The notes beneath the pieces are model-generated. The model was not told where the DNA came from, did not search any database, and was given only the letters and a program-made list of their open reading frames with translations. From Pseudobdellovibrionaceae bacterium (lineage in GTDB: Bacteria; Bdellovibrionota; Bdellovibrionia; Bdellovibrionales; Bdellovibrionaceae), in assembly GCA_039810425.1 (NCBI GenBank), contig JBDHWW010000002.1:80516-144515 (forward strand): 64,000 nt of DNA. The letters are read 5' to 3'. The translations under genes were made by a program, and so were the position numbers. This document shows positions 3,355-19,777 of this stretch, piece by piece. The stretch's first letter is position 1. Each line of letters begins with the position of its first letter.

Positions 3355-4779
3355 ATGGGCTTTAAAATAATTTCTCCCGCGCAGTTAGAAATTCAGCTGC
3401 GGCGGTTTGAAATTCGTCTATCGCAATACTGTGCCGCCAGATTTAAGTGGCTCACTCCTCTGGCGGCAGCGCTTCTGGTTCTCTTAGCCTTTTGGACTAA
3501 ATCCCTGATTGAAGTAGACCCGAAGAGTTTGCAAAACTCCGGCATGTTCTTGTTTACCCACCATGCCCGTTATGTCATGCCTTTTCTTCTGGCGGGTGCG
3601 GGAATCTCTATTTTTTTCCATCGCAAAAATCGGGCGTATTATACGACAGCCGTTACCATGATCGCCTGGGCACTGAATTGCTACATGCTTTTCCTGGGTA
3701 AAGTGCCCGCGGATGTTTTCATCTGCATTCTTTGTTCCTTTCCAACGAATTGTATCTTTACATACTATTTAGGGGTCCATCGCCGCGAAGGCAGGCCCCG
3801 GGTGAGCCTTTCCATCGGCATGATCGCGTACTTTGCATTGACATGGGTTTACATCAGTACGCGACTCTACTCGCAGGATGAATATGGGCAGTTACTACTG
3901 TTTTGGAATTTCAAGCTGCAGTACATGATTCTTGTCGCCATTCAGCTGGCTTTCGCGTTTTCTCCCCGGCCGGTGGATCCATTTCTTGCTTATAATCCGG
4001 TGACAGCGGCCCACAGTATACTTTGGCCCGTCACGACTTTGTTGGCCCGGCGAAACCGCCCTGCGATTTCGCGACTCTGGTGGAATGGGTTTTGGTGCGT
4101 AATTTTGGGATATCTGATTATCTCTCTGCGCATTCAATTGGATAAATCAGACTTGGACGTTTCTAAAAATCTCTTTATTCGATCGACCTCACGCTATTTT
4201 CTGCTGATTCTATCCGACGTTGGTGTTTTCAATCTCGTGACGGGTGTTGCAAGACTTTACGGCTACCGCGCTCGCGATGCCACGAGCTTTTCTTGGTTGG
4301 CTCGAACTCCAGCGGAATATTGGCGCCGTGGCAGCGTTTACCACTACGACTTCATCAATAGATATCTTTATCGTCGGCTATGGAAACGCATCCGGATCCG
4401 ATTTGTAGTAGCTTTCATTTGTTTCTTTTTCTTCTATGTGATGAAAAATGGGGCCCTGGACGTGGGGGCCATGTTCCTAAATTGGATGGGCGCTGATATT
4501 CATGGCGCGTTTTATCGTAGCCCCGATACCCGTTACTCGGTGATTTTGTTCCTCCTGCACTTTCTATTGCTGTACACGACTCAGAGGTATTGGTTTTTTG
4601 AATGGTCACACCAAAAGAAAGTTTGGCAATCGTGGGCCTCGGTTCTCGCAACCTATGCCCTGCAAATATCGGCCATTGCTCTAGCCGTTGTATTGAACAC
4701 TCATGGCCATCAATGGTTGATGCATCTTTGGAAAATTCTTACTTTATTTGGGTCAGGGGGCGATCTAAAGCTTCTGTAA
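3355..4779 (+). CDS. Divergent MBOAT-family membrane-bound O-acyltransferase
   Basis: Multiple TM helices; ARTPAEYWRRGSVYHYDFINRYLY resembles MBOAT S..EFWRRWH....F..YVY; candidate His in LFLLHF. Confidence 0.6.
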   Translation: MGFKIISPAQLEIQLRRFEIRLSQYCAARFKWLTPLAAALLVLLAFWTKSLIEVDPKSLQNSGMFLFTHHARYVMPFLLAGAGISIFFHRKNRAYYTTAVTMIAWALNCYMLFLGKVPADVFICILCSFPTNCIFTYYLGVHRREGRPRVSLSIGMIAYFALTWVYISTRLYSQDEYGQLLLFWNFKLQYMILVAIQLAFAFSPRPVDPFLAYNPVTAAHSILWPVTTLLARRNRPAISRLWWNGFWCVILGYLIISLRIQLDKSDLDVSKNLFIRSTSRYFLLILSDVGVFNLVTGVARLYGYRARDATSFSWLARTPAEYWRRGSVYHYDFINRYLYRRLWKRIRIRFVVAFICFFFFYVMKNGALDVGAMFLNWMGADIHGAFYRSPDTRYSVILFLLHFLLLYTTQRYWFFEWSHQKKVWQSWASVLATYALQISAIALAVVLNTHGHQWLMHLWKILTLFGSGGDLKLL

Positions 4780-5551
4780 CTTTCTTCACTTTAGACATCA
4801 TGCTTTTGAAATCATCAAAAGTCAGCGCTTGAGGTCCATCTGATAGCGCTTCCGCAGGACAAGGATGTACTTCCACGATAACGCCGTCAGCACCCGACGC
4901 CGCCGATGCAATTGCAAGATCTGGAACTAGGGCGCGGATCCCCACCGCATGTGACGGGTCGACAATGACTGGAAATGACGTATTCTTCTTTACGTAAACG
5001 ACCGCATTTAAATCTAGAGTGTTACGAGTCGCCGTTTCAAATGTTCGAATTCCGCGCTCACAAAGAATGACGTTTTCGTTACCACCGTTTGTGATGTACT
5101 CCGCTGCTTTAATCCACTCATCGATCAGGGCGGCGAACCCACGCTTCAAAAGGACCGGTTTGTTCTGCCTGCCCAGTTCTTTTAAGAGCGAGTAATTAAA
5201 CATGTTCCGCGCACCCACTTGAAACATGTCGACGAAATCATGGACCTCTTCGACTTGCTCCGCGTCGGTAATTTCCGAAACGAGACCCATGTTCGTTTCT
5301 TTTAAAACTTCTCGAACAAAATCAAACGAGCTTTCTCCCAAACCTTGAAAGGTCTTCGAAGACGTGCGCATCTTCCAAATCCCCCCGCGAAGTAAGCAGG
5401 CCCCATTGGATTTCACTGTCTGGGCTGTATCTAGAAACTGTTTTTTACTCTCGATGGAACAAGGGCCCGCAATGACTGAAAAGCTTTCGCCGCCGACTTC
5501 TACATTTCCGTAAGCAGTTCTAATTTTCACAACGCGGGTGAAGGGATTCAT
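4739..5551 (-). CDS. aroF: DAHP synthase, type I-beta, catalytic barrel only
   Basis: IAGPCSIE, RGGIWKMRTS, QVGARNM, LLKRG, CERGIR, VDPSH, EVHP, SDG. Confidence 0.92.
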   Translation of the reverse strand: MNPFTRVVKIRTAYGNVEVGGESFSVIAGPCSIESKKQFLDTAQTVKSNGACLLRGGIWKMRTSSKTFQGLGESSFDFVREVLKETNMGLVSEITDAEQVEEVHDFVDMFQVGARNMFNYSLLKELGRQNKPVLLKRGFAALIDEWIKAAEYITNGGNENVILCERGIRTFETATRNTLDLNAVVYVKKNTSFPVIVDPSHAVGIRALVPDLAIASAASGADGVIVEVHPCPAEALSDGPQALTFDDFKSMMSKVKKVTEALDRPLTQIK

Positions 5552-5731
5552 ATAATAAGTATCGGTAAATATTAAACTTACCTCAAGCGCTCTCTCGCTG
5601 AAATGAACAGAGTTAACATCGCCGGCTACTTTTAAAATGTGAAGCCCGCACTAGGTCTAGCACCCAATCACTTTTTGCGCTGGTTTTTCGTACCGAGGAG
5701 TATAATAATTACTAAACAGTGAGAGGGAATC

Positions 5732-6028
5732 ATGAGCAAAAACGATACAGCACTGGCCATCTATGAGCTGAGAAATCAGATCGACCTGATAGACAATCAA
5801 ATTGCTGAAGCCCTGAATAAGCGCGCTGCCATCGTCGAAGAAGTTTGGACACTGAAACAGCAAAGCCAGCTCCCTTTTATTGATCAAGGCAGGGAAAACG
5901 CCATCTTCGCCCGGGTTCGCTCGATCGCAAAAGAGCCTCTGACGGCGGACTCCATGCAAAACATCTTTCAATGCATTCTCCACGAAGTCCGACCAAGAAT
6001 TAAGAGTGCAAAAGCCAAATCAGGATAA
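5732..6028 (+). CDS. Chorismate mutase type II (AroQ-like), stand-alone
   Basis: LRNQIDLIDNQIAEALNKRAAIVEEVWTLK...IDQGRE; SD GAGGGA; TATAAT at 5701. Confidence 0.85.
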   Translation: MSKNDTALAIYELRNQIDLIDNQIAEALNKRAAIVEEVWTLKQQSQLPFIDQGRENAIFARVRSIAKEPLTADSMQNIFQCILHEVRPRIKSAKAKSG

Positions 6029-6031
6029 AAA

Positions 6032-7504
6032 GTGGTCGCTAAAAACGTAAAGAAAAAAACACCCTTTGAAGTCGAGCCTGGCTTCTACCTAGAAGACAAC
6101 CGCAACCAACGGGCTGTCGTCCCCGTCACCAAAGAAACTCTTGAAACCAAACACGCAGCCATTATGCCTGAATGGGTGGTCGAAGGAAAAAGCGTACTCG
6201 ATTTGGGCTGCTGCCTGGCGGCTACGGGACATTGGTGTCTTTCTTATGGCGCAAAAAAGTACACTGGCGTGGAACTCCAGCCCGTCTATGCCAAAAAAGC
6301 CAAAGAGCTTCTTGGCAAGCATTGGTCTAAGGATCAGTTTAAAATTGTCCAATCGGAAATTTCTGATTTTCTCGATGAAGTCAAAAAAGATGAATACGAT
6401 ATCGTGATGATGGCTGGCGTGCTTTATGTCTTCCTCGACTACTTCTCAGTTCTGGAGAAAATGGCCTATGCTTCGAAGGAATGGGTTCTGCTGGAATCCA
6501 TCATGCCACAAAAAAATTTAGATCCAGAAACTCCATATGTCGAATTCGTGAACAAGCAAACCATCACCTTACCGAACGGGCAAGAACGCGCACGCGGTAT
6601 TGGCAGTCGTGTGAGTCCCGGCGGCTTAAAGATGGTTATGGAGCACTTTGGTTTCACAAGCCAAGAGGGTATTATTACCCCGGCTGCGGTTAAAGACACT
6701 CACGATGCTTTCAACGAAGTAATTCCGGGTTGGAAATCTCCGGTGCGTTTTATGATGCGCTTTCAAAAAAGTGGCGCAAAAGTCGCGGATTTATCCACCG
6801 AGCTCAAAACGGGTAGATTCAAACAGCCTAAAGCCGGCTTCGACTCCTACAAGCCCGGAACGAAATTGAAAGCCGGCTCTTGGCAGTTTAACGACATAGT
6901 CGCCGATGAGTTTGAAAATATCGCACTGACTTCGATTCCCCGCTACAAAGAAGTCATCGGCATGTGTGTCGAACTCGCCGCCAAAGCATATCCGGATAAA
7001 AAGTGCCGTGTTCTGGATGTGGGTTCTGCCATTGGCAAAACCATGGACGAATTCCATAGCAACGGATTCAAAGACGTTTGGGGCGTTGAAAAGTCCGAGG
7101 CCATGATCAAGGGGTCTAAATACCGTGATCATGTTATTCACTCCGACACTTTCCCGCCTGGCCAAAAGCCCTTCCACATAGTGTGCGCGAACTGGACACT
7201 TCATTTCGTGAAAGAGCGCCGGGCTTATTTGAAAGATATCTACAATGGCCTGGAGAAAGATGGCTTTTTAATTTTGTCTGATAAAACTCAGGGAAATCCA
7301 TTTCTTCTTGAGCTGTATCATGATTTTAAGCGCCGAAATGGCCTGACAGAGCAGCAGATTGCAGACAAAGCGGAATCTATCAAAGGGGTTCTGGAACCTT
7401 ATCCTTTGACTTGGTATTTGGTCGAATTGAAAAACATCGGTTTTAACGAGGTTCACGTGATCAATGCCTACTATCACTTCACAACCTTTTTGGCGCGCAA
7501 GTAG
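6032..7504 (+). CDS. Two-domain class I methyltransferase: N-terminal CmoB-like, C-terminal CmoA-like
   Basis: Domain 1 VLDLGC...YDIVMMAGVLY; domain 2 WQFNDIVADEF...SIPRY, VLDVGSAIG, NWTLHF, YHDFKRRNG..EQQIADK, collinear with CmoA. Confidence 0.75.
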   Translation: MVAKNVKKKTPFEVEPGFYLEDNRNQRAVVPVTKETLETKHAAIMPEWVVEGKSVLDLGCCLAATGHWCLSYGAKKYTGVELQPVYAKKAKELLGKHWSKDQFKIVQSEISDFLDEVKKDEYDIVMMAGVLYVFLDYFSVLEKMAYASKEWVLLESIMPQKNLDPETPYVEFVNKQTITLPNGQERARGIGSRVSPGGLKMVMEHFGFTSQEGIITPAAVKDTHDAFNEVIPGWKSPVRFMMRFQKSGAKVADLSTELKTGRFKQPKAGFDSYKPGTKLKAGSWQFNDIVADEFENIALTSIPRYKEVIGMCVELAAKAYPDKKCRVLDVGSAIGKTMDEFHSNGFKDVWGVEKSEAMIKGSKYRDHVIHSDTFPPGQKPFHIVCANWTLHFVKERRAYLKDIYNGLEKDGFLILSDKTQGNPFLLELYHDFKRRNGLTEQQIADKAESIKGVLEPYPLTWYLVELKNIGFNEVHVINAYYHFTTFLARK

Positions 7505-7548
7505 TTTTATATTGATCGCTAAATTTGTTTTTGAGACAGTTTATATCT

Positions 7549-8247
7549 ATGGAAGCAGCTAAAGTAAGAGCCTCACGCAGAAGTATTTGTATTTTGTGGC
7601 ATTTGAAATCGAAAAGAATTCTCTGCGTGACTCGCTATACTAGTACCGCCCAAGCACTGATGTCTTCCGGAATGGAGATGGGTTTTAATATTGTGTCTAG
7701 GGCCAAACCCATCCTCCACTCCGAAGACCGTGTCGAGCGTTTAAGACGTATCCCGCCGGAAGAACTCCCGAACTATCTTTTCCATCGCCAGTCCGGGACC
7801 ATCGTAAAAATTGAGAATCCAAAGCCCCTCACAGAAAAACAGAAAAATGCCTGCATTCTGCTCGCCGGCCGCGCTCGTTATCTTCGACGGGTCACTCGGG
7901 TGGTGAGTCAGGCTCGTAAACGCGTGGCGCCTTCTGAGCTCTATGGAGCCTTCGTTGACCAGATTCGCCGCGAACAAGCGTTGAAGTTCCGTGCATCCGG
8001 GTATGACGAGGCTTTGATTCAAGAATGCCTTTTCGTATTTCAGTATGCCCAAGTGAAGAAGATCACGGCACGAGCGGCGGCTGATGAGATCATCTTCCGC
8101 TTTAGCTTGTTTGAAGCTGACCTGTGGAAAACAGAAGAAGTGAAGTTGAAATATTACGACCTCTTTGCCAATGCCGCAAATTTAGAAGACCTTCATGATA
8201 TTTTTCAAGATTTTATCAGGGAGTACTATTTAAATGCCCGTGTCTAA
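7549..8247 (+). CDS. Hypothetical protein, probable paralog of 10383..10955
   Basis: ORF in operon, overlaps next start; N-term ILWHLKSKRILCVTR, C-term ANAANLEDLHDIF. Confidence 0.7.
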   Translation: MEAAKVRASRRSICILWHLKSKRILCVTRYTSTAQALMSSGMEMGFNIVSRAKPILHSEDRVERLRRIPPEELPNYLFHRQSGTIVKIENPKPLTEKQKNACILLAGRARYLRRVTRVVSQARKRVAPSELYGAFVDQIRREQALKFRASGYDEALIQECLFVFQYAQVKKITARAAADEIIFRFSLFEADLWKTEEVKLKYYDLFANAANLEDLHDIFQDFIREYYLNARV

Positions 8248-9349
8248 AAATATTTATATTTATAATCCCATGCTCATTACGAAGAAAAAGCTGCAGGATC
8301 TGCCGGGAATCCGGGCTTTTCGGCATGTGTTACATCTTTTCAATGAAAATGTTGTTTTGGTCGATCGCACCAATACCATTCAGGTGCCTGTGAATGTCAC
8401 GGTTCACGCTCCAATTCCGGAGTTTCGTATGATTGACAAGTCTTACGAACAAATTTGTGATGAGCGTGCCCAGGAACTGCTTCACCGGTCGGATGAACAT
8501 GATTTACCGATCAATGTGTTCTATTCGGGCGGCATTGATTCCACTCTCGTTCTGGTTTCTCTCTTAAAAAATGCGACGGAAGCGCAGAAAAATCGCATCT
8601 GTGCTTTTATGTCCCAAGAATCTATCAACGAAAATCCCGCTTTCTACCGCGATCACCTCCGCGGCAAAGTCAAACTCGAGGCGGCCGCAATTTATCCCTA
8701 CGCGCTGTCTAAGCGAGCCCTATTTGTCGGTGGTGAGCACAATGATCAAATCTTTGGGTCGGCATTATTTAAAGACTTCCTAGACCTCCATGGTGAAGAT
8801 GCCCTCGCGAAGAAATACAGCCGTAGTCAAATGGGGCAAATGTTTGGTCGAAAATGGCACAATGATGTCGTGATCTCTTGGTATATGGACCTCTTTGAAA
8901 AAGTGCGTGCGGCGGCTCCTTGTCCGGTGGATTCCAATGCGGATTTCCTATGGTGGATTAATTTTTCTTTAAAGTGGCAGTCCGTTTATTTCCGAATGCT
9001 AACTTATGCTTCGGACTTTGTGATTCACAACATTGATCGAGATTTCATTGATAATAACTTCTTTCATTTCTATGGTACTGATGCTTTCCAGCTCTGGTCC
9101 ATGGGGAATCCGGATAAGCGTGTCGTGACGAAATGGGAGTCTTACAAGCAAGAAGCAAAAGATGTGATTTATCGCTTTAATAAAGATTCAGAGTATCGCG
9201 ACTATAAAACAAAAAATGGCTCACTCGCATGGGTGATTATGCATCAGATCCAAAAGAACTTTATTGATGATCAAATGCATATGTACATGACTTTGCCGCG
9301 TAAGGATTGGTTCAATCCCAATAATAGCTTTAGGGACGCTCCATTTTAG
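8234..9349 (+). CDS. Asparagine-synthetase-like adenine nucleotide alpha hydrolase (no glutaminase domain), copy 1
   Basis: PP-loop YSGGIDST, GGEHNDQIFG, WWINFSLKWQ, HFYGTDAFQLWS, YKQEAKD. Confidence 0.75.
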   Translation: MPVSKNIYIYNPMLITKKKLQDLPGIRAFRHVLHLFNENVVLVDRTNTIQVPVNVTVHAPIPEFRMIDKSYEQICDERAQELLHRSDEHDLPINVFYSGGIDSTLVLVSLLKNATEAQKNRICAFMSQESINENPAFYRDHLRGKVKLEAAAIYPYALSKRALFVGGEHNDQIFGSALFKDFLDLHGEDALAKKYSRSQMGQMFGRKWHNDVVISWYMDLFEKVRAAAPCPVDSNADFLWWINFSLKWQSVYFRMLTYASDFVIHNIDRDFIDNNFFHFYGTDAFQLWSMGNPDKRVVTKWESYKQEAKDVIYRFNKDSEYRDYKTKNGSLAWVIMHQIQKNFIDDQMHMYMTLPRKDWFNPNNSFRDAPF

Positions 9350-9352
9350 AAT

Positions 9353-10393
9353 ATGGAAAAACTCCTAAATCTGAGCTTTAAATCTAGCCAAAGCCTTAAG
9401 AAGGTTATCTTTCAGGAAGATCTTTTATTTGATCCCTTCGATAAGGCTGTTAGCCGTCTCAACTACAAGCCGGATCTTTTCAACTACGATCTTCAATCGG
9501 AAACAGTTATTAGCATTCAAAAGCTCCACAAAGCAAAGACATGGGAAGAGTGCTGTGCGGAAAGGGCGTTAAGCTTACTGAAACTCGAATATGAAAATTA
9601 TTGGTTTGCCTACAGTGGTGGCATCGATAGCACGGCGATGCTCACTTCGATCCTGAAGTTTTGGCCCGTCAAAGACCTAGCTCGTGTTTCCGTTGTGCTC
9701 ACCCATCACTCTGTCGAGGAGAATCCATTTTTTTTTGATAAGTATATCGTGAAGTTTAATCTTATTAACACTCTTCGCCCGCTCTCAAAAATGTTGTTGA
9801 AGGAACGCACGCTCTTGGTGACCGGTGAACTTGGCGATCAACTTTTTGGCTCCGATATACTAGGGGCTGGTAGCCGCCATTATGGCGATGAGGTCCTTTT
9901 TAAAAACTATAAAGACGTGGCTCCAAAGATTATTGAAGCTTACCTTGGCACAAAAGGGCCTGGAAAAAGTATTTTTGAGCACTTTTATCCGATTGTTGAA
10001 GAAGCTCCTTTCCCGATTAAGACAGCCTATGACTTTTTTTGGTGGTTGAACTTCTCGCAAAAATGGCAACACGTGAAATTTCGTTTTACCGAAAGCAAAA
10101 GTTGGCATTTGGCGGCCAAATATGGCAGTCATATCCAGCACTTCTACGACAGCCCGGACTTCCAAAGCTGGAGCTTACAGAATCATGATTTAAAAGTTCG
10201 CAGTACTTGGCAGTCTTACAAGTTCACTGCAAAGGACTACATTGCGGATTTTACCAAGGATCCAGGGCAGCTGGATCTGATGAAGATTCAAAGCCTGGAA
10301 AAAACCTATGTCCTCGATGAAAAACGTATTGGCGTAGACTCGAACTACAAACCGATCCGAGCCTTTGAGGAGCTCAGGCACTATGCCAGATAG
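9353..10393 (+). CDS. Asparagine-synthetase-like adenine nucleotide alpha hydrolase, copy 2
   Basis: YSGGIDST, TGELGDQLFG, WWLNFSQKWQ, HFYDSPDFQSWS, YKFTAKD. Confidence 0.75.
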   Translation: MEKLLNLSFKSSQSLKKVIFQEDLLFDPFDKAVSRLNYKPDLFNYDLQSETVISIQKLHKAKTWEECCAERALSLLKLEYENYWFAYSGGIDSTAMLTSILKFWPVKDLARVSVVLTHHSVEENPFFFDKYIVKFNLINTLRPLSKMLLKERTLLVTGELGDQLFGSDILGAGSRHYGDEVLFKNYKDVAPKIIEAYLGTKGPGKSIFEHFYPIVEEAPFPIKTAYDFFWWLNFSQKWQHVKFRFTESKSWHLAAKYGSHIQHFYDSPDFQSWSLQNHDLKVRSTWQSYKFTAKDYIADFTKDPGQLDLMKIQSLEKTYVLDEKRIGVDSNYKPIRAFEELRHYAR

Positions 10394-10955
10394 AGTAAAG
10401 CTCTTCATTTATACCGACGCTAAAACTCACCGTGTACTTTTAACAAAGCGAAGTACGAGGTTCAATTTTCTGGTAACTGTTCAAGGTGTTCATGTGCACA
10501 TTCTCAGTTCGCGCCTTGAACTTCCGGAAATCAAGCCTATGGCTCAAACTTACACACCTAAAGTGGGACTGAAGAAGGCTGGATCAAAACTTGGCAAGCC
10601 GGCGCAAGAGCGCCTGGGCATTTTGCGTCGAAAGGTCGAGATCGTCATTCTGGTGCTGACGAGCCTCTATATTATGCGCGATGAGATGAAGGCCACCTTC
10701 GCAAAGCGTGTTCTTGAAAACACCCCGATAAGTTCAGATAACTTCAAAAAATACTGGCTTTTTTCCGCCGAAGAAAAGAATCTCCTATCTGTGCGTCTTC
10801 AAAAATTCGAGAAAAAGTTCACTATGGCGGTCAATGCCGCAGAAACCCTGGATCAAGTGGATGCTCTTTACGAGCATCTGCATTTTAATGTGAATCTTGG
10901 GGTCTACTCAGTGATGAATAGAGAGAGAAAGGGGCTCCATGGCACAAAAAGTTAG
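10383..10955 (+). CDS. Hypothetical protein, probable paralog of 7549..8247
   Basis: SD GAGGAG before ATG 10383; N-term IYTDAKTHRVLLTKR, C-term VNAAETLDQVDALY. Confidence 0.7.
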   Translation: MPDRVKLFIYTDAKTHRVLLTKRSTRFNFLVTVQGVHVHILSSRLELPEIKPMAQTYTPKVGLKKAGSKLGKPAQERLGILRRKVEIVILVLTSLYIMRDEMKATFAKRVLENTPISSDNFKKYWLFSAEEKNLLSVRLQKFEKKFTMAVNAAETLDQVDALYEHLHFNVNLGVYSVMNRERKGLHGTKS

Positions 10956-11283
10956 TATTGATATCTTAAAGAAGGCCCTTCTGGAGGTTAATCCTCGTGT
11001 GCGTAAGATAAACTTCACGGCACAAACAGATCTCTTTGAAGAGGGAATTCTGGATTCATACTCCGTGATTCAGCTTGTGAATACTTTTGAAAAGCGCTTT
11101 GGTATTGTCTTTGATTATGCCGATTTGAAGGCGGCGTATTTTAGGAACCTCATAAGTCTTATCGGTATCCTCACGATGAAGTATAAGCTCAAGGAGGGCA
11201 AGAATCCTCCGCCAAATAAGAAGAAAAAGAAAAGAAAGGCCAAAAAAGCCGGGGTCGTCAAAAAGGCTAAAAAGAAGAATTAA
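10939..11283 (+). CDS. Acyl carrier protein (DltC-like) with Lys-rich tail
   Basis: DLFEEGILDSYSVIQLVNTFEKRFGI, with phosphopantetheine-acceptor Ser in LDS; tail NKKKKKRKAKKAGVVKKAKKKN. Confidence 0.8.
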   Translation: MAQKVSIDILKKALLEVNPRVRKINFTAQTDLFEEGILDSYSVIQLVNTFEKRFGIVFDYADLKAAYFRNLISLIGILTMKYKLKEGKNPPPNKKKKKRKAKKAGVVKKAKKKN

Positions 11284-11936
11284 AACTTCGTAAATGTTCG
11301 ATTTAACATCGGATGAGAATCATCTGTCGGCCCGGTATCCGAATCCGGATGAAAGGCGATAATTTTCAATTTTTCGCCGAAAGAATTGAATGAGTGAACT
11401 AAACCCTCCGGTAAATAGAAGGCCATGCCCGGTTTCAAAGGGAGTTTCTGATTCGGCATCACACACTCCCCTTCACCTTCAAACACGACACCAAGACGAA
11501 CCGTCGGATGAATATGCGGCGTTTGAACCACTTTGGGCGGAAATACTAAAAGGTTGAAAACGGGATCCCCCATACGGGGCGGCGGAATGATAATTGTTGT
11601 GTTGGAATTATCGATGTAACAGAGACGACCACTGTCTTCTACGGGGCCACCTACATGGAGAAGCCCCCGGTATCCGACGCGTTCGATGACGATGATTTCG
11701 CCATCCCCTTTGATATGAAACGGGCCGGGCGCAGAGAAGTACATGCCACCCTGAAGTGTGACATAGTGTTGCCCCTGGCGCTGCAATTCATATTTGCCAT
11801 TGAGAACGAATCCAAAGTAAGTACTTGTCGGGAGCGCAAAACTCTCATCACAGCGTCCGAAGCCTTTTAAGACACTCGGATACATCGTGGCAGACGCATC
11901 TAAAACACATCCTTCTTTAACCTGCTTATAAATCAT
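11280..11936 (-). CDS. Cupin-domain protein
   Basis: HIHP...GVVFEGEG and P.GLVHSF cupin motifs; FHPDSDTGPTDDSHPM. Confidence 0.75.
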   Translation of the reverse strand: MIYKQVKEGCVLDASATMYPSVLKGFGRCDESFALPTSTYFGFVLNGKYELQRQGQHYVTLQGGMYFSAPGPFHIKGDGEIIVIERVGYRGLLHVGGPVEDSGRLCYIDNSNTTIIIPPPRMGDPVFNLLVFPPKVVQTPHIHPTVRLGVVFEGEGECVMPNQKLPLKPGMAFYLPEGLVHSFNSFGEKLKIIAFHPDSDTGPTDDSHPMLNRTFTKF

Positions 11937-12025
11937 AGTTGCTCCCCCACTCCTCTACTTTAAAGACTATCTCCCTATTTCCATTCGCTGTCATGGTCCA
12001 ATGCATATGGATCCAGACCTAAGTT

Positions 12026-12994
12026 TTAAATCGTCGCCTTCGCTTTCTGCTTCTTATGCATTGTTTTTGGCTTCTTTGTTTCCGCCTTCATCTTTTCTGC
12101 ATTTTCTTTTCTATTTTTTTCCATGGCTAAATAGCTTGAGATCATCGGCTTGATTATTTGAAAGCTCTTATTGACGCCATTCGAATTTAGCTGCGTCCTC
12201 GAACCACCCATAAGATTTTCTGAGCGGAAAAGTTGATAGAACTCCCGCGTAAGTAATTGAAAATTGAAGCCAGAATAAGCCAAATATTCTTTTATCTCTT
12301 TTTTATCTACGTTAGCGCCGCTGAAAAATATTTGAGCTACAGAGGAACTCATTTGATTGTCAGGAAATATTTCACGGTTATATCGTATTCTTTCTGGAGA
12401 TATAAGAAAGACGACTCGGGCTTTATCTTTCAATAAGAACTGGATAGACCGGAGTGGCACGAAACTTACATCGAGAAAAAATTCCCTTTTGTCGGTAGCC
12501 GAGCCTTCGACATTCCAGCTCGTCTCCAATCTATCCTGTATGAAAATGGCCTTCTTAACGGGCAACAGATAATCTAATCTAGGCAACAACACTCGCGACC
12601 ACGTGGGTTGATTCGTAAAAATTTCATCTTTAGAAAAGACTTCTGCAGTGAGAGGCGTGTCAGGTAAGTTCCTGCTAAAAAGCACTTCTTCAAAATCCCT
12701 TGCAAACATTCTGGACGGCTGGACATAGAAAATGTAGTCAGGCTGTGACGTCTTTAGACGCTCTTGGAGAAAGAAGTACTGGCTAAGAGCGAATCCCGGA
12801 GATGTCTTTAGCTCCACTTGAACCGGCCTTCCCAAAGACTGTAACAAATAGGATTCCAGGTTGTGCAGGCTCGTTTTGAGTTCTGGCGTATCAGCACTCC
12901 AAATCTCCGGCGCAACAAGCCACACGATCAGTGGCCCGTCATCTGCTTTAGCCTGTAGACATAATAGTACAAGAAAGCTTAAAACGTACTTCAA
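12026..12994 (-). CDS. Exported protein, possibly degenerate SGNH/DltD-like fold
   Basis: Signal peptide; SPGFALSQY...SQPDYIF and QLNSNG resemble SGNH blocks II/III/V, but catalytic Ser/His are not evident. Confidence 0.45.
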   Translation of the reverse strand: MKYVLSFLVLLCLQAKADDGPLIVWLVAPEIWSADTPELKTSLHNLESYLLQSLGRPVQVELKTSPGFALSQYFFLQERLKTSQPDYIFYVQPSRMFARDFEEVLFSRNLPDTPLTAEVFSKDEIFTNQPTWSRVLLPRLDYLLPVKKAIFIQDRLETSWNVEGSATDKREFFLDVSFVPLRSIQFLLKDKARVVFLISPERIRYNREIFPDNQMSSSVAQIFFSGANVDKKEIKEYLAYSGFNFQLLTREFYQLFRSENLMGGSRTQLNSNGVNKSFQIIKPMISSYLAMEKNRKENAEKMKAETKKPKTMHKKQKAKATI

Positions 12995-14325
12995 TAGAGT
13001 TCTCCAGTTTTGACTGCGTGGTTTAATTTATACTGATTTGGATAAAAAAGAACCTTTTGAGCCCAATCTTTCATCCCGTTACGATACCAATAAATGCTCT
13101 TATATCCTTTGGATTTTAAGTAAATAGCGGCTTTATACGCACGCCAATCATACTCGTTCTCACCAATGAGAACGATCGTCTTATTTTTTGGTATGTTGAT
13201 ACTATTCTTATAGCCTTCCTTGTGTCTCCTCAATCCTTTCGCATTCATCCTGCCACGAAAGACCGGCATGGAAAGTGCGTTTCTTTTTTCGGGGAAAGAC
13301 ATCGCTAATGTTCCCGGCAAAGAGAATTTTTTTTCCAAGCGAACGTCGACTATTGTATTTTTCTTTTTATCCCGCATAAACTCTCGAACTTGATTTGCCT
13401 CGACGACTATTGCCGCATCAGACTTATCCGGCGTTAGACACGGCTTTGCTTTGTCTCCATACTCCGCCATTCCACCGGGAAACCAACCTACGTTTCTATA
13501 CCCCATAGAGACTAGCAGTGTGACCGTGTTATAAGCAGAGTACTCTGCGGGACACCCAGAAATGATATTTACAGGCTCGCCTTTATTTGCGGGAAGAGGG
13601 TTTTTACTAAACATGATCTTATGTTTTTTCATTTCCTCCGGTGACAAAATCTCAGAGGAAATTCGCATATAGTCAACATACTCAAGAGCCTTTGCATACT
13701 CCAGGGGAACCTTCTTTTTTAAGGTCGCGGGCCGGATATCATATACGTGACTGTTTTTTAAACTCTCCATGAACTCCTTTTTTTTAAGACTCTTAGCCTC
13801 AGGATGCACGCGAGGACTTCCATAAGATTTCAAAGTGTCGGACAAATGATCCGCTATGACAGTTACGGCAATAAGAGGAGCCATATCAAGATCGGGACCT
13901 TTTCTCCCGGTAAAGTCAGCAATCTTATTTTTAAAATAATTTAACTCTTTTTCAGTCGCCTGGTGTGATTCACGTTTTTTGTACTCAGCATAGTTAATTT
14001 TTTCTACTTTCAGGATTTTAACAGTCCCTCTGTTTGCCCGCCAAAATACCAGGCTTTCTGAATTTTTCGTCTCTACCAACTCAATTTTTTGATTAGGCAT
14101 AAAACATTTATCGGTGTTCACAAAATAGAGCGTTTCTGGCTGGTTCTTAATCACCTTCCAAAATTTGGCACTATTCATGTGTATATTTTTTTCCGCTGTT
14201 TTCTCTGAGCATGCTACGGCCGTGACGCCCTCCACGGCTGTCTTTTCGGCCGCCACCACAGGCCAGGCCAGTAGTGATAAGGCTAAAATGAAACAAGCAA
14301 TATAACCGTTATAATTCACTTCCAT
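12991..14325 (-). CDS. Exported tandem rhodanese-like domain protein
   Basis: Signal peptide; two repeats VYDIR...MGYRNVGWFPGGMAEY and IVDVR...KGYKSIYWYRNGMKDW. Confidence 0.7.
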   Translation of the reverse strand: MEVNYNGYIACFILALSLLAWPVVAAEKTAVEGVTAVACSEKTAEKNIHMNSAKFWKVIKNQPETLYFVNTDKCFMPNQKIELVETKNSESLVFWRANRGTVKILKVEKINYAEYKKRESHQATEKELNYFKNKIADFTGRKGPDLDMAPLIAVTVIADHLSDTLKSYGSPRVHPEAKSLKKKEFMESLKNSHVYDIRPATLKKKVPLEYAKALEYVDYMRISSEILSPEEMKKHKIMFSKNPLPANKGEPVNIISGCPAEYSAYNTVTLLVSMGYRNVGWFPGGMAEYGDKAKPCLTPDKSDAAIVVEANQVREFMRDKKKNTIVDVRLEKKFSLPGTLAMSFPEKRNALSMPVFRGRMNAKGLRRHKEGYKNSINIPKNKTIVLIGENEYDWRAYKAAIYLKSKGYKSIYWYRNGMKDWAQKVLFYPNQYKLNHAVKTGELY

Positions 14326-16712
14326 CGAACAAGCCCCCCAGACGTATCGAGTGAAAAAATAATTTCGCCATTGTTAATCCAAGGAACAGAACTCAAACGG
14401 TCTCCGAGATTAATCCGCCTTTTAATGGTCCCTTTTAAAGAATTAAAAATACATAGTTCTCTTTCAAAACAATTTGCCAGAAGCTCCTCCTGCTGATTTT
14501 TCCCTTTTTTTTCTACAAGCAATACCGGGCTTGAGAAAAAAACTCCGCTTCCTTGATGCCGCCACAGTTCTTTTCCGTTCGAGAAGTCAAGGGCTATGGT
14601 TCTTCCAGAAGACGTGCTAATGTAGACAGCATTCGCTTTTTTTGACCATGTCGGCGAGCTTTGACAAGCGCCTTCTAAAGGCGAATTCCAAAGGAGCTCA
14701 CCCGTAGCTGCCTTCACCTTATAGATATTCTTGTCCCAAGAGCAGAAGACCACCGAACCATCAGCGACCATGGGTGTGCCCTTAATCGCCAGTCCAATGG
14801 GGTACCGCCATGCAAACTTCCCGGTCACCACATCTAACGCGTTTAAATAGCCATTGTTCGAGCCCACAAAGACCAGCCTGCCGTCTTCTGAAAGTGCGGG
14901 CGACGAATGCGCCTGATCTCCAAAGAAGGGACTCTTCCACTGAAGCTCTCCTGTGGCGGCGTCAATTTTGGCAATAAAGCCGTCCGGTGGTGAAAAGGTC
15001 TCTACAGCAACGTAGATTGAACCTCGATCATATAAAGGCGAAGATCCAATAGTCTGGCCCAGAGGTAATAGCCAATTGAGTTCACCTGACTCTTTATTAG
15101 CTGAATAAAGCATGCCGTCGTAGTCACCCCAATAAACTGAGTTTCCCGCTATAAGCCCGCTGCCGTGGATTCCTTTGTCCGCTGATGTCGTCCACCGCCA
15201 AATTTCCCTTCCTGACATATCTATCGCAGAGAAATAGCCCTGATCAGAACCAGCAAAGATCTTAGTGCCGTCTGATATCGGAGAACTTTTACTCGCTGTA
15301 TGCCGTGAATCATTCCAATTTGGTTTGCGCCATATAGGTCGGCTCATCGGATGAATTAGCTCCTTAGTCTGGACAACTCCAGTACGTTGAGCATCTTCAC
15401 GATACATCACCGTCCTCTGCGAAGAATCCAATTTCGCACTTTGATAGCGCCATGGAGTGATTTCAGCCGAGCCATTCTTATTTGTCTCTATCCAAGGGTT
15501 GCTCCAAAGAGGGTTAAAGGATGGACTGCTCTTACAAATGTCATCCAATTTTACCGTCGGATGAAAATTGCTTTCACTGCTCAATCGCGTCTGCAAAAAA
15601 AGGCTTACGGAAGCAGCGTCATTGTTTTTGCGATTGTACTCGCAAAGACGACGTGCGAATTCGAGATATAAGTAGGGCTCACAGCGAATCCGGGTTCCCA
15701 CGTTTTCCAAATTGATCTGCATTTGAACATAGTGCCCTACTCCTTTATTGATCACAAAGCTATGTCGGCAAACCGCGCGGGCATCAAACATGTTGAGAGA
15801 GACAAGCCGGCCCTCCCCTGTTAGCGCCGAATTACCAGACAAAAGCATGGGGTAAATTTGGGCAAGAATAAATGCCCCAATTAAGAAACGATGTGGTCTA
15901 TAAGACCAAATATCAGAAAGTCGTGGCGACGGAGTATCCGTCTTAAACATGAATATAAAAATGCTGAGGACACAAAACATAACGGCTGGATAAAATAGTC
16001 CTACAATTTGAATGGAGTATATGTGAAAGATAAAAAATTGAATCAAGGAGACTTTTTGTAAATGTCGTCTCGAACTCAAAAGTAAAAAAGAAATCCCAAT
16101 CTCTAAAACTATCACATATACCGTGGCAAGCTGAATTGGAATCCATTTTAATGGCCCAATATCACCATAGAGAGCACTTCCTGAAATCCACTCATTGTTC
16201 AGCTTAAGAACACCTGCTCCTAGATAGATCATGACAATGGCTATTGGAATCAATTGAATTTTACGTGGGACTAACAAGAAAATAAGAATAAAGATGAAGT
16301 GGATATAATGAAAGTTGCCCATCAAACGATAGTCTTGCGAATAAATAAAGAACTTAAATAATAGAATAAAGAATGAATAGCTGTAAGCCGCGGCAATTGA
16401 TTTTCTTAGCCATAACGTCGATCCAATCAAACCCGCAATAAAATAAGTGACAAGAATCCAACGCCACAGCTCTGGCGTGCCAAAGCGAAAACTTTCGCAA
16501 AATTGCATAAAGGGCTGGCAATACCCCGGCGTGGCTTTGCTGATCTGGTTGTAGACTTCGCCGACAAAAAACCAATAAGAAAAAGTGAAGAAGTGAATAA
16601 GGGACAAAAGAAATCCATAATTTCGCAACGCCGGCGATTTCTGAATTTCTTCCCTATTAACCCGTATGAATTGCTTACTTTTTGCTGGCAAACCAGACGT
16701 CAACGACTTCAC
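14316..16712 (-). CDS. HTTM (vitamin K-dependent carboxylase-like) membrane domain fused to PQQ-like/BamB-type beta-propeller
   Basis: IYLGAGVLKLNNEWISG, GNFHY, GRLVSLNMF; C-terminal repeats SSP...G.L.A.D..TG...W. Confidence 0.75.
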   Translation of the reverse strand: MKSLTSGLPAKSKQFIRVNREEIQKSPALRNYGFLLSLIHFFTFSYWFFVGEVYNQISKATPGYCQPFMQFCESFRFGTPELWRWILVTYFIAGLIGSTLWLRKSIAAAYSYSFFILLFKFFIYSQDYRLMGNFHYIHFIFILIFLLVPRKIQLIPIAIVMIYLGAGVLKLNNEWISGSALYGDIGPLKWIPIQLATVYVIVLEIGISFLLLSSRRHLQKVSLIQFFIFHIYSIQIVGLFYPAVMFCVLSIFIFMFKTDTPSPRLSDIWSYRPHRFLIGAFILAQIYPMLLSGNSALTGEGRLVSLNMFDARAVCRHSFVINKGVGHYVQMQINLENVGTRIRCEPYLYLEFARRLCEYNRKNNDAASVSLFLQTRLSSESNFHPTVKLDDICKSSPSFNPLWSNPWIETNKNGSAEITPWRYQSAKLDSSQRTVMYREDAQRTGVVQTKELIHPMSRPIWRKPNWNDSRHTASKSSPISDGTKIFAGSDQGYFSAIDMSGREIWRWTTSADKGIHGSGLIAGNSVYWGDYDGMLYSANKESGELNWLLPLGQTIGSSPLYDRGSIYVAVETFSPPDGFIAKIDAATGELQWKSPFFGDQAHSSPALSEDGRLVFVGSNNGYLNALDVVTGKFAWRYPIGLAIKGTPMVADGSVVFCSWDKNIYKVKAATGELLWNSPLEGACQSSPTWSKKANAVYISTSSGRTIALDFSNGKELWRHQGSGVFFSSPVLLVEKKGKNQQEELLANCFERELCIFNSLKGTIKRRINLGDRLSSVPWINNGEIIFSLDTSGGLVRWK

Positions 16713-18237
16713 CCTTCATTCTTTTACCGCTCTTCAATAGAGTAAAAGAGGACCGCTCTCTTAGCTCCGCCCGACTCCCAATTGCCAACGCCGCATTCTT
16801 CGAGTATCTCAAAGAAATAGATTCGACACCCGCCTCTTTCAAAGTTTTTAAATCCTTTTTTAGAGTTACACCCTTCCCTGTGGAGTCATGCCAAAGCCGC
16901 AGTTGGGGATAAATCGGATCTTTGGCGTCGATAACTCCATCTCCATTCTCATCAAATACGGCCAAGAGTTCAAACCCATTTAAGGAACTATCCTCGCTGC
17001 CAAACATTTCAGTGACATCGTTGATTATTCCATCGCTGTTTCTATCCAAAACTAAGAAGGCCGCATTAAGCTCTGGCTCTGGCCAATAAGTTTTATCCGC
17101 ATAACTACTCATTTTGAAATCGATGAATCGATTAAACTGGGCTTCCTGTCGATCGAAGAACAGCATCAATGGAGAAAAGTACCCCCCACAGAAATCGACT
17201 TGGCCTGGAAAGGCCGCGGTGATATTTAAGACTTTGAAATCGCTGGACCAAAAGGCTTCCCAATTTACGGAAATACCGCCATCTCTGCCCATATATTTTT
17301 GAATGTCCGCGGGCGCGTTAGTGTAATTGAATGGATTTGGAACTGGATTAACAACCGCATCGATGGCCCGTATTTGGTTCCACCAGGCGAAGCGTGGCTG
17401 GCCCCATCCGGGATCTTTATTAAATGCCGGCCCATCACGCATTGGTACCTCATCCACCACGGGGGTTCCTGGATCATTGATCGTTCCGCCACCGCCATCG
17501 CCGCCGCCATCACCGCCATCGCCGCCTGCATATGACTTTTCCGTAGCGCCCCATGAAAGCCACTTAAATGGAGTCATGAAAGAGGATAGTGCCGTTTGAA
17601 TTCCCCAAGGCCTTATCTTTTGCTTTTCTTCAAGCTTTGAGACCTTAACTTGTCCCACGACACTGTACACATCTTGAGTGACATCAACTTGGCTCACTAA
17701 AGAAGCGAAGTCGGAATTCGTATAGGTATTTCCCGTGAGTGGAACCCCGGGGGTTATGCTTAGTGGTGCATTAAAAATGATAGTATTTCCAAAAGCGCTG
17801 GTGAGGCCTGGCTGGCGTCCGGTCGGCTCGTAAGGCCAGTCATTGTTGTCTGGCGATTTATCAACATAAAAAACAGAGCCATTAACAATAGCCAGCGGAT
17901 TAGGAAAGGGTACCATCGTGCTTTGCTTTGTATTCATAACCATCCAGCCAGGAAATACGATGGAAAATGAATCTCCATTTCGAAAGGCCATACTAAACTT
18001 GATACTTCCGGTCGGCGAAATAGGATTTGGAACACTACGAAGATTCGTGCCAAAACACGAAACATTCATTCTTACTTGAAAGCCCATTGTAGGATCGCTA
18101 AAAGAGCTGGCTTGATCAGAAAATATTATTGTATCTGTGGCCCGGCCCGCTTGGCTGGGACGAACCAACACTTGAGCCCCCTGCACCGGGCCTGATGTTG
18201 CTGCCAATAAAATGCTTAGAAATACTTTTTTCTTCAT
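16675..18237 (-). CDS. Secreted protein with C-terminal EF-hand-like Ca-binding domain
   Basis: Signal peptide; SPLML, LVLDRNSDGII, NGFELLAVFDENGDGVIDAKD, LRLWHD; Gly/Asp linker. Confidence 0.7.
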   Translation of the reverse strand: MKKKVFLSILLAATSGPVQGAQVLVRPSQAGRATDTIIFSDQASSFSDPTMGFQVRMNVSCFGTNLRSVPNPISPTGSIKFSMAFRNGDSFSIVFPGWMVMNTKQSTMVPFPNPLAIVNGSVFYVDKSPDNNDWPYEPTGRQPGLTSAFGNTIIFNAPLSITPGVPLTGNTYTNSDFASLVSQVDVTQDVYSVVGQVKVSKLEEKQKIRPWGIQTALSSFMTPFKWLSWGATEKSYAGGDGGDGGGDGGGGTINDPGTPVVDEVPMRDGPAFNKDPGWGQPRFAWWNQIRAIDAVVNPVPNPFNYTNAPADIQKYMGRDGGISVNWEAFWSSDFKVLNITAAFPGQVDFCGGYFSPLMLFFDRQEAQFNRFIDFKMSSYADKTYWPEPELNAAFLVLDRNSDGIINDVTEMFGSEDSSLNGFELLAVFDENGDGVIDAKDPIYPQLRLWHDSTGKGVTLKKDLKTLKEAGVESISLRYSKNAALAIGSRAELRERSSFTLLKSGKRMKGEVVDVWFASKK

Positions 18238-18238
18238 T

Positions 18239-19234
18239 TTATTTTCCTAGCCTTTGCTCCGACGTTTGAGGTGTCACATCAATGGTGATTGTTGGATCGC
18301 TGATGTTAGGTCGGGCGAATACCACCTGAACGATGCGATCGCCAATGAGAACCGGAGAACCAAAGCTCGCTCCATTCCAAGTACTATAGTAAAAGTCGCC
18401 CGCATGGTTTCCGTAGGCCACTACCGGATTTGCTTTTATCTCATACTTTATCAATCGCACGGTTCGCACCAAGAGTGGCGGGATACCGCCACTAGCTGGT
18501 GGAATGGTTTTCAAATAGTCATCAAAATCTAAGATACTAACTGCGTTGTTTTGAGCATTTTTAAAAGAAACCACGCCACCAAAATTCTCTGTATTGCAGG
18601 GTGTTCCAGGGACATTTGTACAGCGGATAAAGTAACTGGTTGAATTCGGCATGGTGCTCGTCGAAGCTCCAATATTTCTCATCGTCGAGGGCACATAAAC
18701 TTCGAGAACCTGGGTCGCCTTCATTAGGAAGTTTGGGTTCAAAGCACTGACAAATTGCCTAAAGAGACTCCAGTCCAACAGGGAGGTCGCCGGCGTGGAA
18801 GCCAAGGAAAGGTTGTAGAATTTCGCCGGGTCCATAAGTAGAACTTCGGGGTATCCACTACTAACTTGCGCGGTGAATGATTCGCTTAAAAGCGCAAGAA
18901 AACTAGTGCTTCCGCCAGTTAAGTTCAGCGTGATTTTCCGAGTCATGCCCGGAGTACTTGTCGTCACCGCCAGATCGCGGTTTAAATCATAGAAATTTTG
19001 ACTGTTATCGTCGGGTTGAAGCACATTATTGAAAGATGGCGCTGCATTTTTCAAGTGCATCCAAACATATCTTTCAGCAAGTGCCTGTGTAGTGTGAGAG
19101 TCGCTCTTAACACGAACTCGATTTTCCATAATACGCATGTATTGGACTATGTCCATAAGCGCGAGCAACACCATGCCGGCAAGGGCGATGGCGACACACA
19201 ACTCTGTGATGGTGAAACCCCGACTGTCTCTCAT
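18239..19234 (-). CDS. Type IV prepilin-like (PilW/PulJ-like) protein
   Basis: Class III signal MRDSRG|FTITELCVAIAL. Confidence 0.8.
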   Translation of the reverse strand: MRDSRGFTITELCVAIALAGMVLLALMDIVQYMRIMENRVRVKSDSHTTQALAERYVWMHLKNAAPSFNNVLQPDDNSQNFYDLNRDLAVTTSTPGMTRKITLNLTGGSTSFLALLSESFTAQVSSGYPEVLLMDPAKFYNLSLASTPATSLLDWSLFRQFVSALNPNFLMKATQVLEVYVPSTMRNIGASTSTMPNSTSYFIRCTNVPGTPCNTENFGGVVSFKNAQNNAVSILDFDDYLKTIPPASGGIPPLLVRTVRLIKYEIKANPVVAYGNHAGDFYYSTWNGASFGSPVLIGDRIVQVVFARPNISDPTITIDVTPQTSEQRLGK

Positions 19235-19240
19235 ACCTAC

Positions 19241-19777
19241 CTAGTTTGTATTAATCAAAAAGTAGTAAAAATTATCCTGCAACTCTGTTGCCGTTGCACT
19301 CAGATCTTTCTGAATATGGGCGACACGAATCGTTCCTTCAAACATCCCACTCACGTTTGTCGAGGGTAAAATTGTATATGAAATTAAACCGTCGCAATAC
19401 GAATCCGTGGGTAAATTGGATCCATTAGGCGTCGCTGTTAATGTCGGATTATTTGGATCACATTTTGGAGGGTTACCATTACTACCGACATACATAACAG
19501 CTCCAGCGTAACCGTAAGAGAAACTTGACAAGAAACTTTGGCTGGTCCCCGCATTAATAGTAAAGTTTTTCTGATAAACTGCAGGTTCACCTTTAATCGT
19601 TTCAATAATTTGAGAAACGACTTGATATTCAGATGTCGCTCTCACTGTATTACTGTCTGTTTTAAAAAGCTGAAGACTTCCATCCACAATCATATAGAAC
19701 ACTGCCACCAGCAAAACCATCGCTAACAAGCTTTCAATAATAGTCTGACCATGGTTGTTTCTGATGAAATTTCTCAC
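19241..19777 (-). CDS. Type IV prepilin-like (PilV-like) protein
   Basis: NNHG|QTIIESLLAMVLL with Glu at +5. Confidence 0.75.
   Translation of the reverse strand: MRNFIRNNHGQTIIESLLAMVLLVAVFYMIVDGSLQLFKTDSNTVRATSEYQVVSQIIETIKGEPAVYQKNFTINAGTSQSFLSSFSYGYAGAVMYVGSNGNPPKCDPNNPTLTATPNGSNLPTDSYCDGLISYTILPSTNVSGMFEGTIRVAHIQKDLSATATELQDNFYYFLINTN

Follow-up and report, generated by a model that had tools for sequence, protein, structure and literature searches.

A Bdellovibrionales gene cluster that joins two asparagine-synthetase-fold ligases, an acyl carrier protein and an MBOAT-like membrane protein

Among described systems, the Dlt system, AlgIJ and PatAB stand closest to the gene cluster analyzed here. 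Like this cluster, whose membrane protein has a putative MBOAT fold, they hold a membrane protein of this fold in a conserved unit, which in the case of Dlt also contains an acyl carrier protein (ACP). His289 and His336 are used in the active site of DltB, as described in PMC11035591, and an MBOAT-SGNH model has been put forward in a preprint (bioRxiv 10.1101/2024.09.17.613324). The present cluster lies within a stretch of 64,000 nucleotides, referred to as the window, from a Pseudobdellovibrionaceae bacterium (GenBank assembly GCA_039810425.1, contig JBDHWW010000002.1, positions 80,516 to 144,515). In an original prediction, made from the letters alone, an MBOAT, a carrier protein, an SGNH-like protein and two ligases resembling asparagine synthetase (AsnS) had been combined into a candidate modification system. 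According to our analysis, the likely task of the cluster is to activate a small acid and deliver it to the cell envelope, using a not yet described route. The system varies the known carrier-MBOAT logic and is built from uncharacterised parts.

The contig carrying the cluster (C2) is part of a 3.54 Mb genome, which is 99.88% complete and has its nearest named relatives in the Bdellovibrionales. Every open reading frame (ORF) of the original prediction was recovered in place, and the tight run on the + strand (5732–11283) was confirmed, with gaps of 3, 20, -14, 3, -29 and -17 bp between chorismate mutase, methyltransferase, pA, L1, L2, pB and ACP, in this order. Together with the adjoining genes, the run comprises the following features (window coordinates):

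3355..4779, + strand: MBOAT-like membrane protein of 474 aa (hhalign, motif alignment, family survey)
4739..5551, - strand: DAHP synthase, the second copy of the genome, accessory (PF00793, NF006421)
5732..6028, + strand: standalone chorismate mutase (PF01817)
6032..7504, + strand: two-domain methyltransferase with a CmoA-like C-domain (TIGR00740 below cut-off, PDB matches)
7525..8247, + strand: pA, the partner of L1 (viral-locus linkage, model, predicted complex)
8234..9349, + strand: L1, PP-loop ligase of 371 aa with asparagine-synthetase fold (model, tree)
9353..10393, + strand: L2, PP-loop ligase of 346 aa from the ACP-linked clade (identity to L1, tree)
10365..10955, + strand: pB, the partner of L2 and a distant pA paralogue (hhalign, gene order)
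10939..11283, + strand: ACP with Ser40 and a Lys-rich tail (PF00550, alignment)
11280..11936, - strand: cupin (PF07883, alignment of 16)

The related genome G005 has all of these genes in identical order, and G002 has all but the DAHP synthase. The arrangement is therefore real, and neither chance nor a product of the assembly. With its two ligase-partner pairs, pA-L1 and L2-pB, the cluster has the makeup of a mosaic. Its occurrence is patchy, with an L1 match in 4 out of 61 related genomes and an L2 match in 22 out of 384 genomes of Bdellovibrionales, two of which are doubtful and contain stops. In agreement with the original remark that no described pathway with this gene set was recognised, no account of it was found in a literature search whose coverage left out most subscription journals.

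The predicted presence of two PP-loop ligases with partner proteins was confirmed. Both ligases are assigned to the asparagine-synthetase fold, L1 by its structure model (pLDDT 93.7) and L2 by its 31% identity to L1. The L1 model superimposes with the synthetase domain of TsnB9 (Z 13.6, rmsd 4.4, 255 aligned), with human ASNS (Z 12.1) and with beta-lactam synthetase (Z 11.8), and Foldseek gave concordant results. These structural matches begin at target residues 129–178, and no match to a glutaminase domain (GATase) was detected in L1 or L2. The PP-loop motif is present in 182 of 183 family sequences. Both proteins stay below every Pfam and NCBIfam cut-off, a sequence search with L1 against the PDB returned 0 matches, and PHROGs gave weak matches of unknown function only. 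By analogy with the chemistry of this fold and family, L1 and L2 would form acyl-adenylates.

The ligase family is found chiefly in viruses and in bacteria of the Candidate Phyla Radiation (CPR). Its Atlas clusters consist to 89–94% of viruses, and at least 543 confirmed viral stretches stand beside 83 in genomes. In a tree of 183 sequences, which remained of 251 candidates after removal of identical sequences, of two thirds of the viral ones and of those that were short, long or low-scoring, L1 groups within the CPR ligases (support 0.93) and the ACP-linked L2 proteins form one clade of ten (support 0.90). Within this clade pB is always situated immediately 3' of L2 in the ACP-linked loci, and an ACP follows pB in all nine members with downstream sequence, the tenth being cut by a contig end; the sister branches have no ACP. 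Neighborhoods were compared over at most 8 kb per side, many of them cut, after one duplicate locus had been dropped. Here the postulated linkage of the ligases to ACP and MBOAT holds for the L2 clade but not for the L1 clade and the wider family, where an ACP or MBOAT-like gene is nearby in 0 of 78 viral and 3 of 75 genome loci. Of the two ligases, only L2 is tied to the carrier protein.

The ACP itself scores 25.1 bits with PF00550 (cut-off 20.8), which bears out its original assignment, and Ser40 is invariant in 12 of 12 aligned ACPs. Conserved linkage of AsnS-like ligase, ACP and MBOAT-like protein was found in eight Bdellovibrionales genomes, the core of MBOAT-like protein, L2, pB and ACP being present at this locus and at the survey loci L008, L011, L012, L081, L195, L196 and L200. 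The gene order of the core is rearranged among these genomes; in L081 and L196 a compact operon of cupin, membrane protein, L2, pB and ACP is observed.

A search of the phylum with the MBOAT-like family yielded seven further loci, all without L2. An AMP-binding enzyme lies within 7 kb in six of these seven, including one at L240 that may serve an adjacent canonical MBOAT instead, and an ACP is found in five; the seventh locus sits on a contig of only 5.9 kb. Among the eight loci with L2, an AMP-binding enzyme occurs in one (L195), accompanied there by an ACP and a canonical MBOAT of its own. This exchange pattern supports the earlier idea of a ligase in place of DltA and provides the chief argument that L2-pB substitutes for DltA, although it is suggestive only, because the related loci are not independent. 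The absence of a DltA-type ligase from the locus was likewise confirmed: the genome has seven PF00501 genes, none of them on contig C2.

Several observations weigh against a Dlt-like relay with loading by L2-pB. Since the ACP-linked L2 proteins represent one clade, the eight genomes reflect one evolutionary event and not independent trials. At locus L243 the genes L2, pB and ACP occur without an MBOAT-like gene inside 7 kb. The genome has seven AMP-binding genes at other places, and their products could load the ACP in trans. Moreover, the searches made revealed no AsnB-fold enzyme making an ACP thioester, and the known AsnS homologues acting on ACPs amidate a tethered acid (bioRxiv 10.64898/2026.04.24.720606). 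In an alternative that we regard as rather unlikely, L2-pB would leave the loading to an enzyme acting in trans and, by amidation or by joining on an amine, would modify the acid already tethered to the ACP; the resulting lipid or small molecule with an amide group would be released or exported by the MBOAT-like protein. AsnS homologues such as GbnC, known to act on ACP-bound malonyl and succinyl groups (same preprint), provide a precedent for such chemistry, the best structural matches of L1 are amide-forming enzymes, and the genome contains two further ACP matches besides its AMP-binding genes. Desaturases and PLP (pyridoxal phosphate) enzymes in related loci would also fit. However, this alternative leaves the disappearance of AMP-binding enzymes from the L2 loci unexplained, and neither a glutaminase domain nor an acyltransferase gene is present at the locus.

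Two other ACP-containing arrangements were observed. Loci L236, L237, L239 and L240 combine MBOAT-like, AMP-binding, ACP and fatty-acid-desaturase-like genes with PLP-decarboxylase-like or ATP-grasp genes, and constitute a second undescribed ACP pathway. In the present genome, contig C13 (54456–65551) holds a separate ACP cluster, which by eye comprises genes for an AMP-binding enzyme, for ferritin-like proteins and for an ABC exporter, together with two ACP-like genes and one resembling seryl-tRNA synthetase.

Each ligase has a partner of its own. Among the loci of the ligase family, 76 of the 78 viral ones and 26 of the 75 from genomes contain pA. Its model (pLDDT 90.7) resembles uncharacterised phage proteins in BFVD, among them a weak match to DUF4376/phage tail-fibre assembly (E 0.011, TMq 0.38), and phrog_8258 was weakly detected in 2 of 69 pA members. 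Comparison with solved structures gave short, generic three-helix bundle matches and no informative fold. pB is a distant paralogue of pA (hhalign probability 85.7, E 5.5e-6). The predicted L1-pA complex scores 0.62, with 0.00 for the best control; the mark applied to this score is reached by 116 of 157 solved pairs and by 2 of 215 mismatched pairs. Contacts agree by at least 89% between prediction runs, with a partner pLDDT of at least 83. The modeling supports, but does not show, that L1 and pA form a two-subunit enzyme.

Regarding the membrane protein, the original MBOAT assignment was confirmed as homology to the MBOAT core, but not as a canonical catalytic MBOAT. Alignment of the family profile with that of 11 canonical MBOATs gave a probability of 97.9 (E 3.8e-13) over 139 columns, and the profile retrieves Pfam-positive MBOATs. 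Among weak family members, 3 of 55 scanned match PF03062 at E <0.01. Above the Pfam cut-off, PF03062 was found in 0 of 10 family members and nowhere in the genome, and the profile had 0 matches in the PDB; MBOAT clusters listed for the membrane protein in the Atlas (0.84–0.85) serve as a lead only. The position of DltB His289 is occupied by Ser327, whereas canonical controls have His in 12 of 12 cases. Lys364/Asn365 are found at the position of His336, without any His in 361–368, whereas 11 of 12 canonical controls have His. The family comprises 277 representatives at 50% identity, and among the best 150 of these the first active-site position is His in 0 of 98 strong matches and Asn in 14; the 364 column of the wider family is His in 24 of 95 and Lys or Arg in 33 of 95. 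The lack of both histidines leaves the transfer chemistry unexplained and also counts against the proposed relay. Judged by its residues, the MBOAT-like protein would be no more than a conduit or would use an altered chemistry.

The SGNH half of the Dlt/AlgIJ logic was not borne out. It had been ascribed to the following gene:

12026..12994, - strand: orphan protein with a short hydrophobic N-terminus (no family match)

As an SGNH protein this candidate was rejected, as it displays neither a family match nor a G-D-S or DxxH motif and contains two His in total. Alignment with six local DltD/SGNH-like proteins, just one of which is Pfam DltD-positive, gave an hhalign value of 1%, and the homologues number seven, itself included. 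The lack of an SGNH partner at the locus is a further point against a Dlt-like relay, and the MBOAT-SGNH model is not applicable here.

Upstream of the ligases, the chorismate mutase scores above the PF01817 cut-off, as had been predicted. Its gene ends 3 bp before the methyltransferase gene and is the sole chorismate mutase found in the genome. Prephenate dehydratase (PDT), prephenate dehydrogenase (PDH) and U32 peptidases were not found in the genome; with PDT and PDH both missing from the results, a housekeeping role in Phe/Tyr synthesis was rejected. The enzyme likely supplies prephenate to the adjacent methyltransferase, which, as predicted, is a two-domain protein. The best solved relatives of its C-domain are YecO (E 2e-18) and CmoA (E 5e-16); with TIGR00740 it scores 96.7 bits, below the cut-off of 193.3. 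CmoA converts S-adenosylmethionine (SAM) and prephenate to carboxy-SAM (PMC10491745 and PMC7496830), and its Arg199 binds the carboxyl of the carboxymethyl group (PMC3663124). Carboxy-SAM chemistry is suggested because the only chorismate mutase abuts a CmoA-like gene and no other prephenate consumer was found. As further support, standalone chorismate mutases of other Bdellovibrionaceae often adjoin a prephenate user: in 6 of 29 fetched loci (L335, L343, L348, L350, L351 and L352) the neighbor is a U32 peptidase (prephenate-dependent hydroxylase) gene, and U32 enzymes depend on prephenate (PMC6599085). CmoA-like matches occur in 6 of 182 genomes of the family Bdellovibrionaceae, three of them being the loci described here.

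Other data oppose this assignment. Arg199 is replaced by Ala447, with the preceding Lys kept, and none of 10 neighborhood homologues has Arg at this position. The methyltransferase occurs in only 8 of 153 L1-family loci, and its CPR and phage copies have no adjacent chorismate mutase. Chorismate mutase is common, being present in 103 of the 182 Bdellovibrionaceae genomes. In conclusion, use of prephenate by the CmoA-like domain is plausible but not secure. The shikimate-derived cargo of the original prediction is rated less likely than prephenate as a carboxyl donor, which is itself uncertain with Arg199 missing.

The N-domain is a class I methyltransferase. Tested for CmoB membership (PF08003/NF011650), it reaches 20.5 bits (cut-off 209), and PF08003 was not found in the genome, which argues against a patchwork island in which chorismate mutase and methyltransferase, as an analogue of CmoA/CmoB, serve a cmo5U-type tRNA modification apart from ligases, ACP and MBOAT. 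TrhO, the maker of the ho5U substrate (PMC6599085), is present in the genome and the methyltransferase is missing from 5 of the 8 core loci, as such an island would allow. Yet the same type of two-domain methyltransferase adjoins pA-L1 in phages and CPR bacteria, and translational coupling spans the entire + strand run; we consider this explanation improbable.

A precedent for combining CmoA with an AsnS-like amide ligase is the DNA hypermodification by CmoA/CmoX/CmoY of phages (PMC12783734). In favor of a hypermodification of DNA bases by the CmoA-like domain and the ligases, Synechococcus phage S-B43 couples these classes of enzymes (PMC12783734) and the ligase family is mostly viral. Such a hypermodification is very improbable here: no C5 cytosine methyltransferase is encoded at the locus, and L1 had no tblastn match in 50,697 cultured-phage records, among which the inclusion of S-B43 was unchecked. 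One ligase-like protein encoded next to a phage cmoA failed to align to L1 (1.3%), and ACP and membrane genes would be left without a role. In a Staphylococcus phage (L323, 2995–5513), cmoA-like, ligase-like and cytosine methyltransferase genes lie in a row; in the CmoA-like protein of this phage, Gln occupies the Arg199 position and Arg follows one residue later.

Scores above the PF00793 and NF006421 cut-offs confirm the divergent DAHP (3-deoxy-D-arabino-heptulosonate 7-phosphate) synthase. It is 79% identical to the other copy of the genome, which lies on contig C69 among menaquinone genes, as read by eye. Its originally proposed membership in the system did not stand up: it occurs in just 2 of the 8 core loci, and with a spare copy in the genome it was rejected as a core part.

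Downstream of the ACP, the cupin identity was verified with PF07883. His141, His143 and His181 are invariant in the alignment of 16, and the profile matches generic cupins only in the PDB. A cupin is often found near the ligase family, with 37 of the 78 viral loci and 25 of the 75 from genomes containing one. The - strand beyond the orphan gene contains:

12991..14325, - strand: rhodanese-domain protein with N-terminal hydrophobic segment (PF00581)
14316..16712, - strand: fusion of a membrane domain and a PQQ-type beta-propeller (PF13360)
17485..17535, - strand: Gly/Asp-rich insert in a 520-aa protein, 16675–18237 (homologue comparison)

The rhodanese gene is present solely in the three loci of the same genus. 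The propeller fusion probably belongs to the island, because both of its halves have relatives among the CPR neighbors of the L1 family (L015, L017 and others); in these CPR loci the methyltransferases recur as well, together with propeller proteins and the membrane domain. Upstream of the propeller and rhodanese genes, and co-oriented with them, three prepilin-like genes are located at 18239–22530 (-), with N_methyl slightly below cut-off. An IS1-like transposase fragment was recognized by eye at the end of the window (63447–63974, +), and the non-coding segment 1563–1909 is presumably an RNase P RNA gene on the - strand.

The 520-aa protein on the - strand is of secreted type and EF-hand-like, with an internal A-x-A followed by a Gly/Asp repeat. 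Although the protein as a whole is 76% identical in G005, the insert is unchanged there; it is shortened in G002 and absent from 27 other homologues, and as a candidate acceptor it is a lead only. It bears on a further alternative, namely that the ligase-partner pairs modify proteins or peptides in the manner of RiPPs (peptides that ribosomes synthesize and that are modified post-translationally), with L1-pA acting on Asp of Gly/Asp segments and the 520-aa neighbor or pilus-associated proteins as target. The secreted precursor-like peptides of the CPR clusters may be modified in a similar way. The loci of the CPR ligases with which L1 nests hold YcaO-like, nitroreductase and Gly/Asp/Cys-rich peptide genes, pA resembles phage proteins including DUF4376, and the insert resembles the cores of the CPR precursor-like peptides. 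Yet it is not retrieved by the CPR precursor profile, which, applied to 18,336 ORFs of this genome, revealed no clear precursor. G002 has every enzyme but no Asp repeat, no YcaO was found in this genome, the phage loci showed no such peptides, and the ACP remains unaccounted for. We judge protein or peptide modification to be unlikely.

CPR loci L014–L034 encode a family of short peptides that are signal-anchored and possess an AHAD-like site and cores of Gly/Asp/Ser/Cys (for example L016 2515–2814, L020 5104–5298 and L033 1097–1339), with 7 seeds and about 6 further matches. They adjoin YcaO-like, nitroreductase, phosphoribosyltransferase (PRTase)-propeller, sodium:solute symporter and TPR genes, the YcaO and PRTase labels being what we take these genes to be by eye, not from a family scan. 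Bdellovibrionales enzyme islands resembling phage islands (L197–L211 and L360) hold further PP-loop subfamilies, desaturases, radical SAM enzymes, TRAP binding proteins and a carbamoyltransferase.

Taken together, we tentatively favor a Dlt-like relay with loading by L2-pB and hand-over by a His-less MBOAT-like protein, to which a genus-specific module for carboxymethylation and subsequent amidation is added, although our confidence in this combination falls somewhat short of even. In this relay, the role of a DltA-type enzyme would fall to L2-pB, which would activate a small carboxylic acid by adenylation and attach it to the ACP; the fold suggests the adenylation, and the exchange with AMP-binding enzymes suggests the loading. 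The MBOAT-like protein would then dock the ACP and transfer the cargo to an acceptor located in the membrane or beyond it, a step suggested by the pairing of MBOAT and ACP. In the original prediction, a surface glycan or the neighboring pilus was put forward as a possible target. The second module, consisting of chorismate mutase, CmoA-like fusion and pA-L1, was added in this genus; it would likely make carboxy-SAM from prephenate and carboxymethylate a substrate, whose carboxyl would be amidated by L1-pA, as by phage CmoA/CmoX/CmoY on DNA. The cupin may tailor the cargo. More doubtful is the farther-reaching version in which a two-subunit ligase of CPR bacteria and phages, duplicated and recruited in predatory bacteria, loads a carrier in the stead of DltA-type ligases and feeds a carboxy-SAM-derived block through a His-free MBOAT onto a protein or polymer of the cell surface.

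No function has been assigned to the ligase-partner family, which is abundant among uncultured phages and CPR bacteria. As L2 adjoins a small soluble ACP, it offers a direct handle on the chemistry of the family. If L2 loads the ACP, it would represent a new enzyme class for carrier activation, and the farther-reaching version would, if true, provide a new route of envelope decoration and a first handle on a ligase family carried by hundreds of uncultured phages. In predatory bacteria such decoration may bear on prey recognition or phage avoidance. The MBOAT-like family, which escapes Pfam and partly lacks the catalytic His, can be used to probe whether MBOAT folds serve as plain conduits or use another catalytic residue. 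Similarly, carboxy-SAM biology would be widened if a CmoA relative without Arg199 were confirmed to be supplied by a dedicated chorismate mutase.

Compared with the Dlt system, in which DltA is AMP-binding and whose type of loading enzyme is likewise used by relatives of the present MBOAT-like family, this locus lacks an AMP-binding ligase, SGNH/DltD and equivalents of DltB His289/His336, and has an AsnB-fold ligase with a dedicated partner in the place of DltA. With AsnB, beta-lactam synthetase, TsnB9 and the GbnC-type ACP amidotransferases, L1 and L2 share the synthetase-domain fold and the PP-loop, but differ in their low identity (11–14%), the lack of a glutaminase domain and the presence of a separate partner subunit, which for L1 is predicted to bind. 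In common with the CmoA/CmoB pathway of cmo5U in tRNA, the methyltransferase has a C-domain nearest to CmoA/YecO, here with a gene for prephenate supply adjacent; it departs from that pathway by its score below the TIGR00740 cut-off, the exchange of Arg199 to Ala and an N-domain other than CmoB. In phage CmoA/CmoX/CmoY, too, a CmoA-like gene adjoins a second domain of methyltransferase type and an AsnS-like ligase, whereas the cluster described here has no C5-MTase and no Arg199, contains an ACP and a membrane protein, and encodes an L1 without detectable relation to cultured-phage proteins. Finally, L1 and pA belong to the families of an uncharacterised pA-ligase pair that occurs in the YcaO clusters of CPR bacteria and in uncultured phages. 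In contrast to the CPR clusters, neither YcaO nor a precursor peptide was found in this genome, and a second pair, which has diverged, is linked here with an ACP and an MBOAT-like protein.

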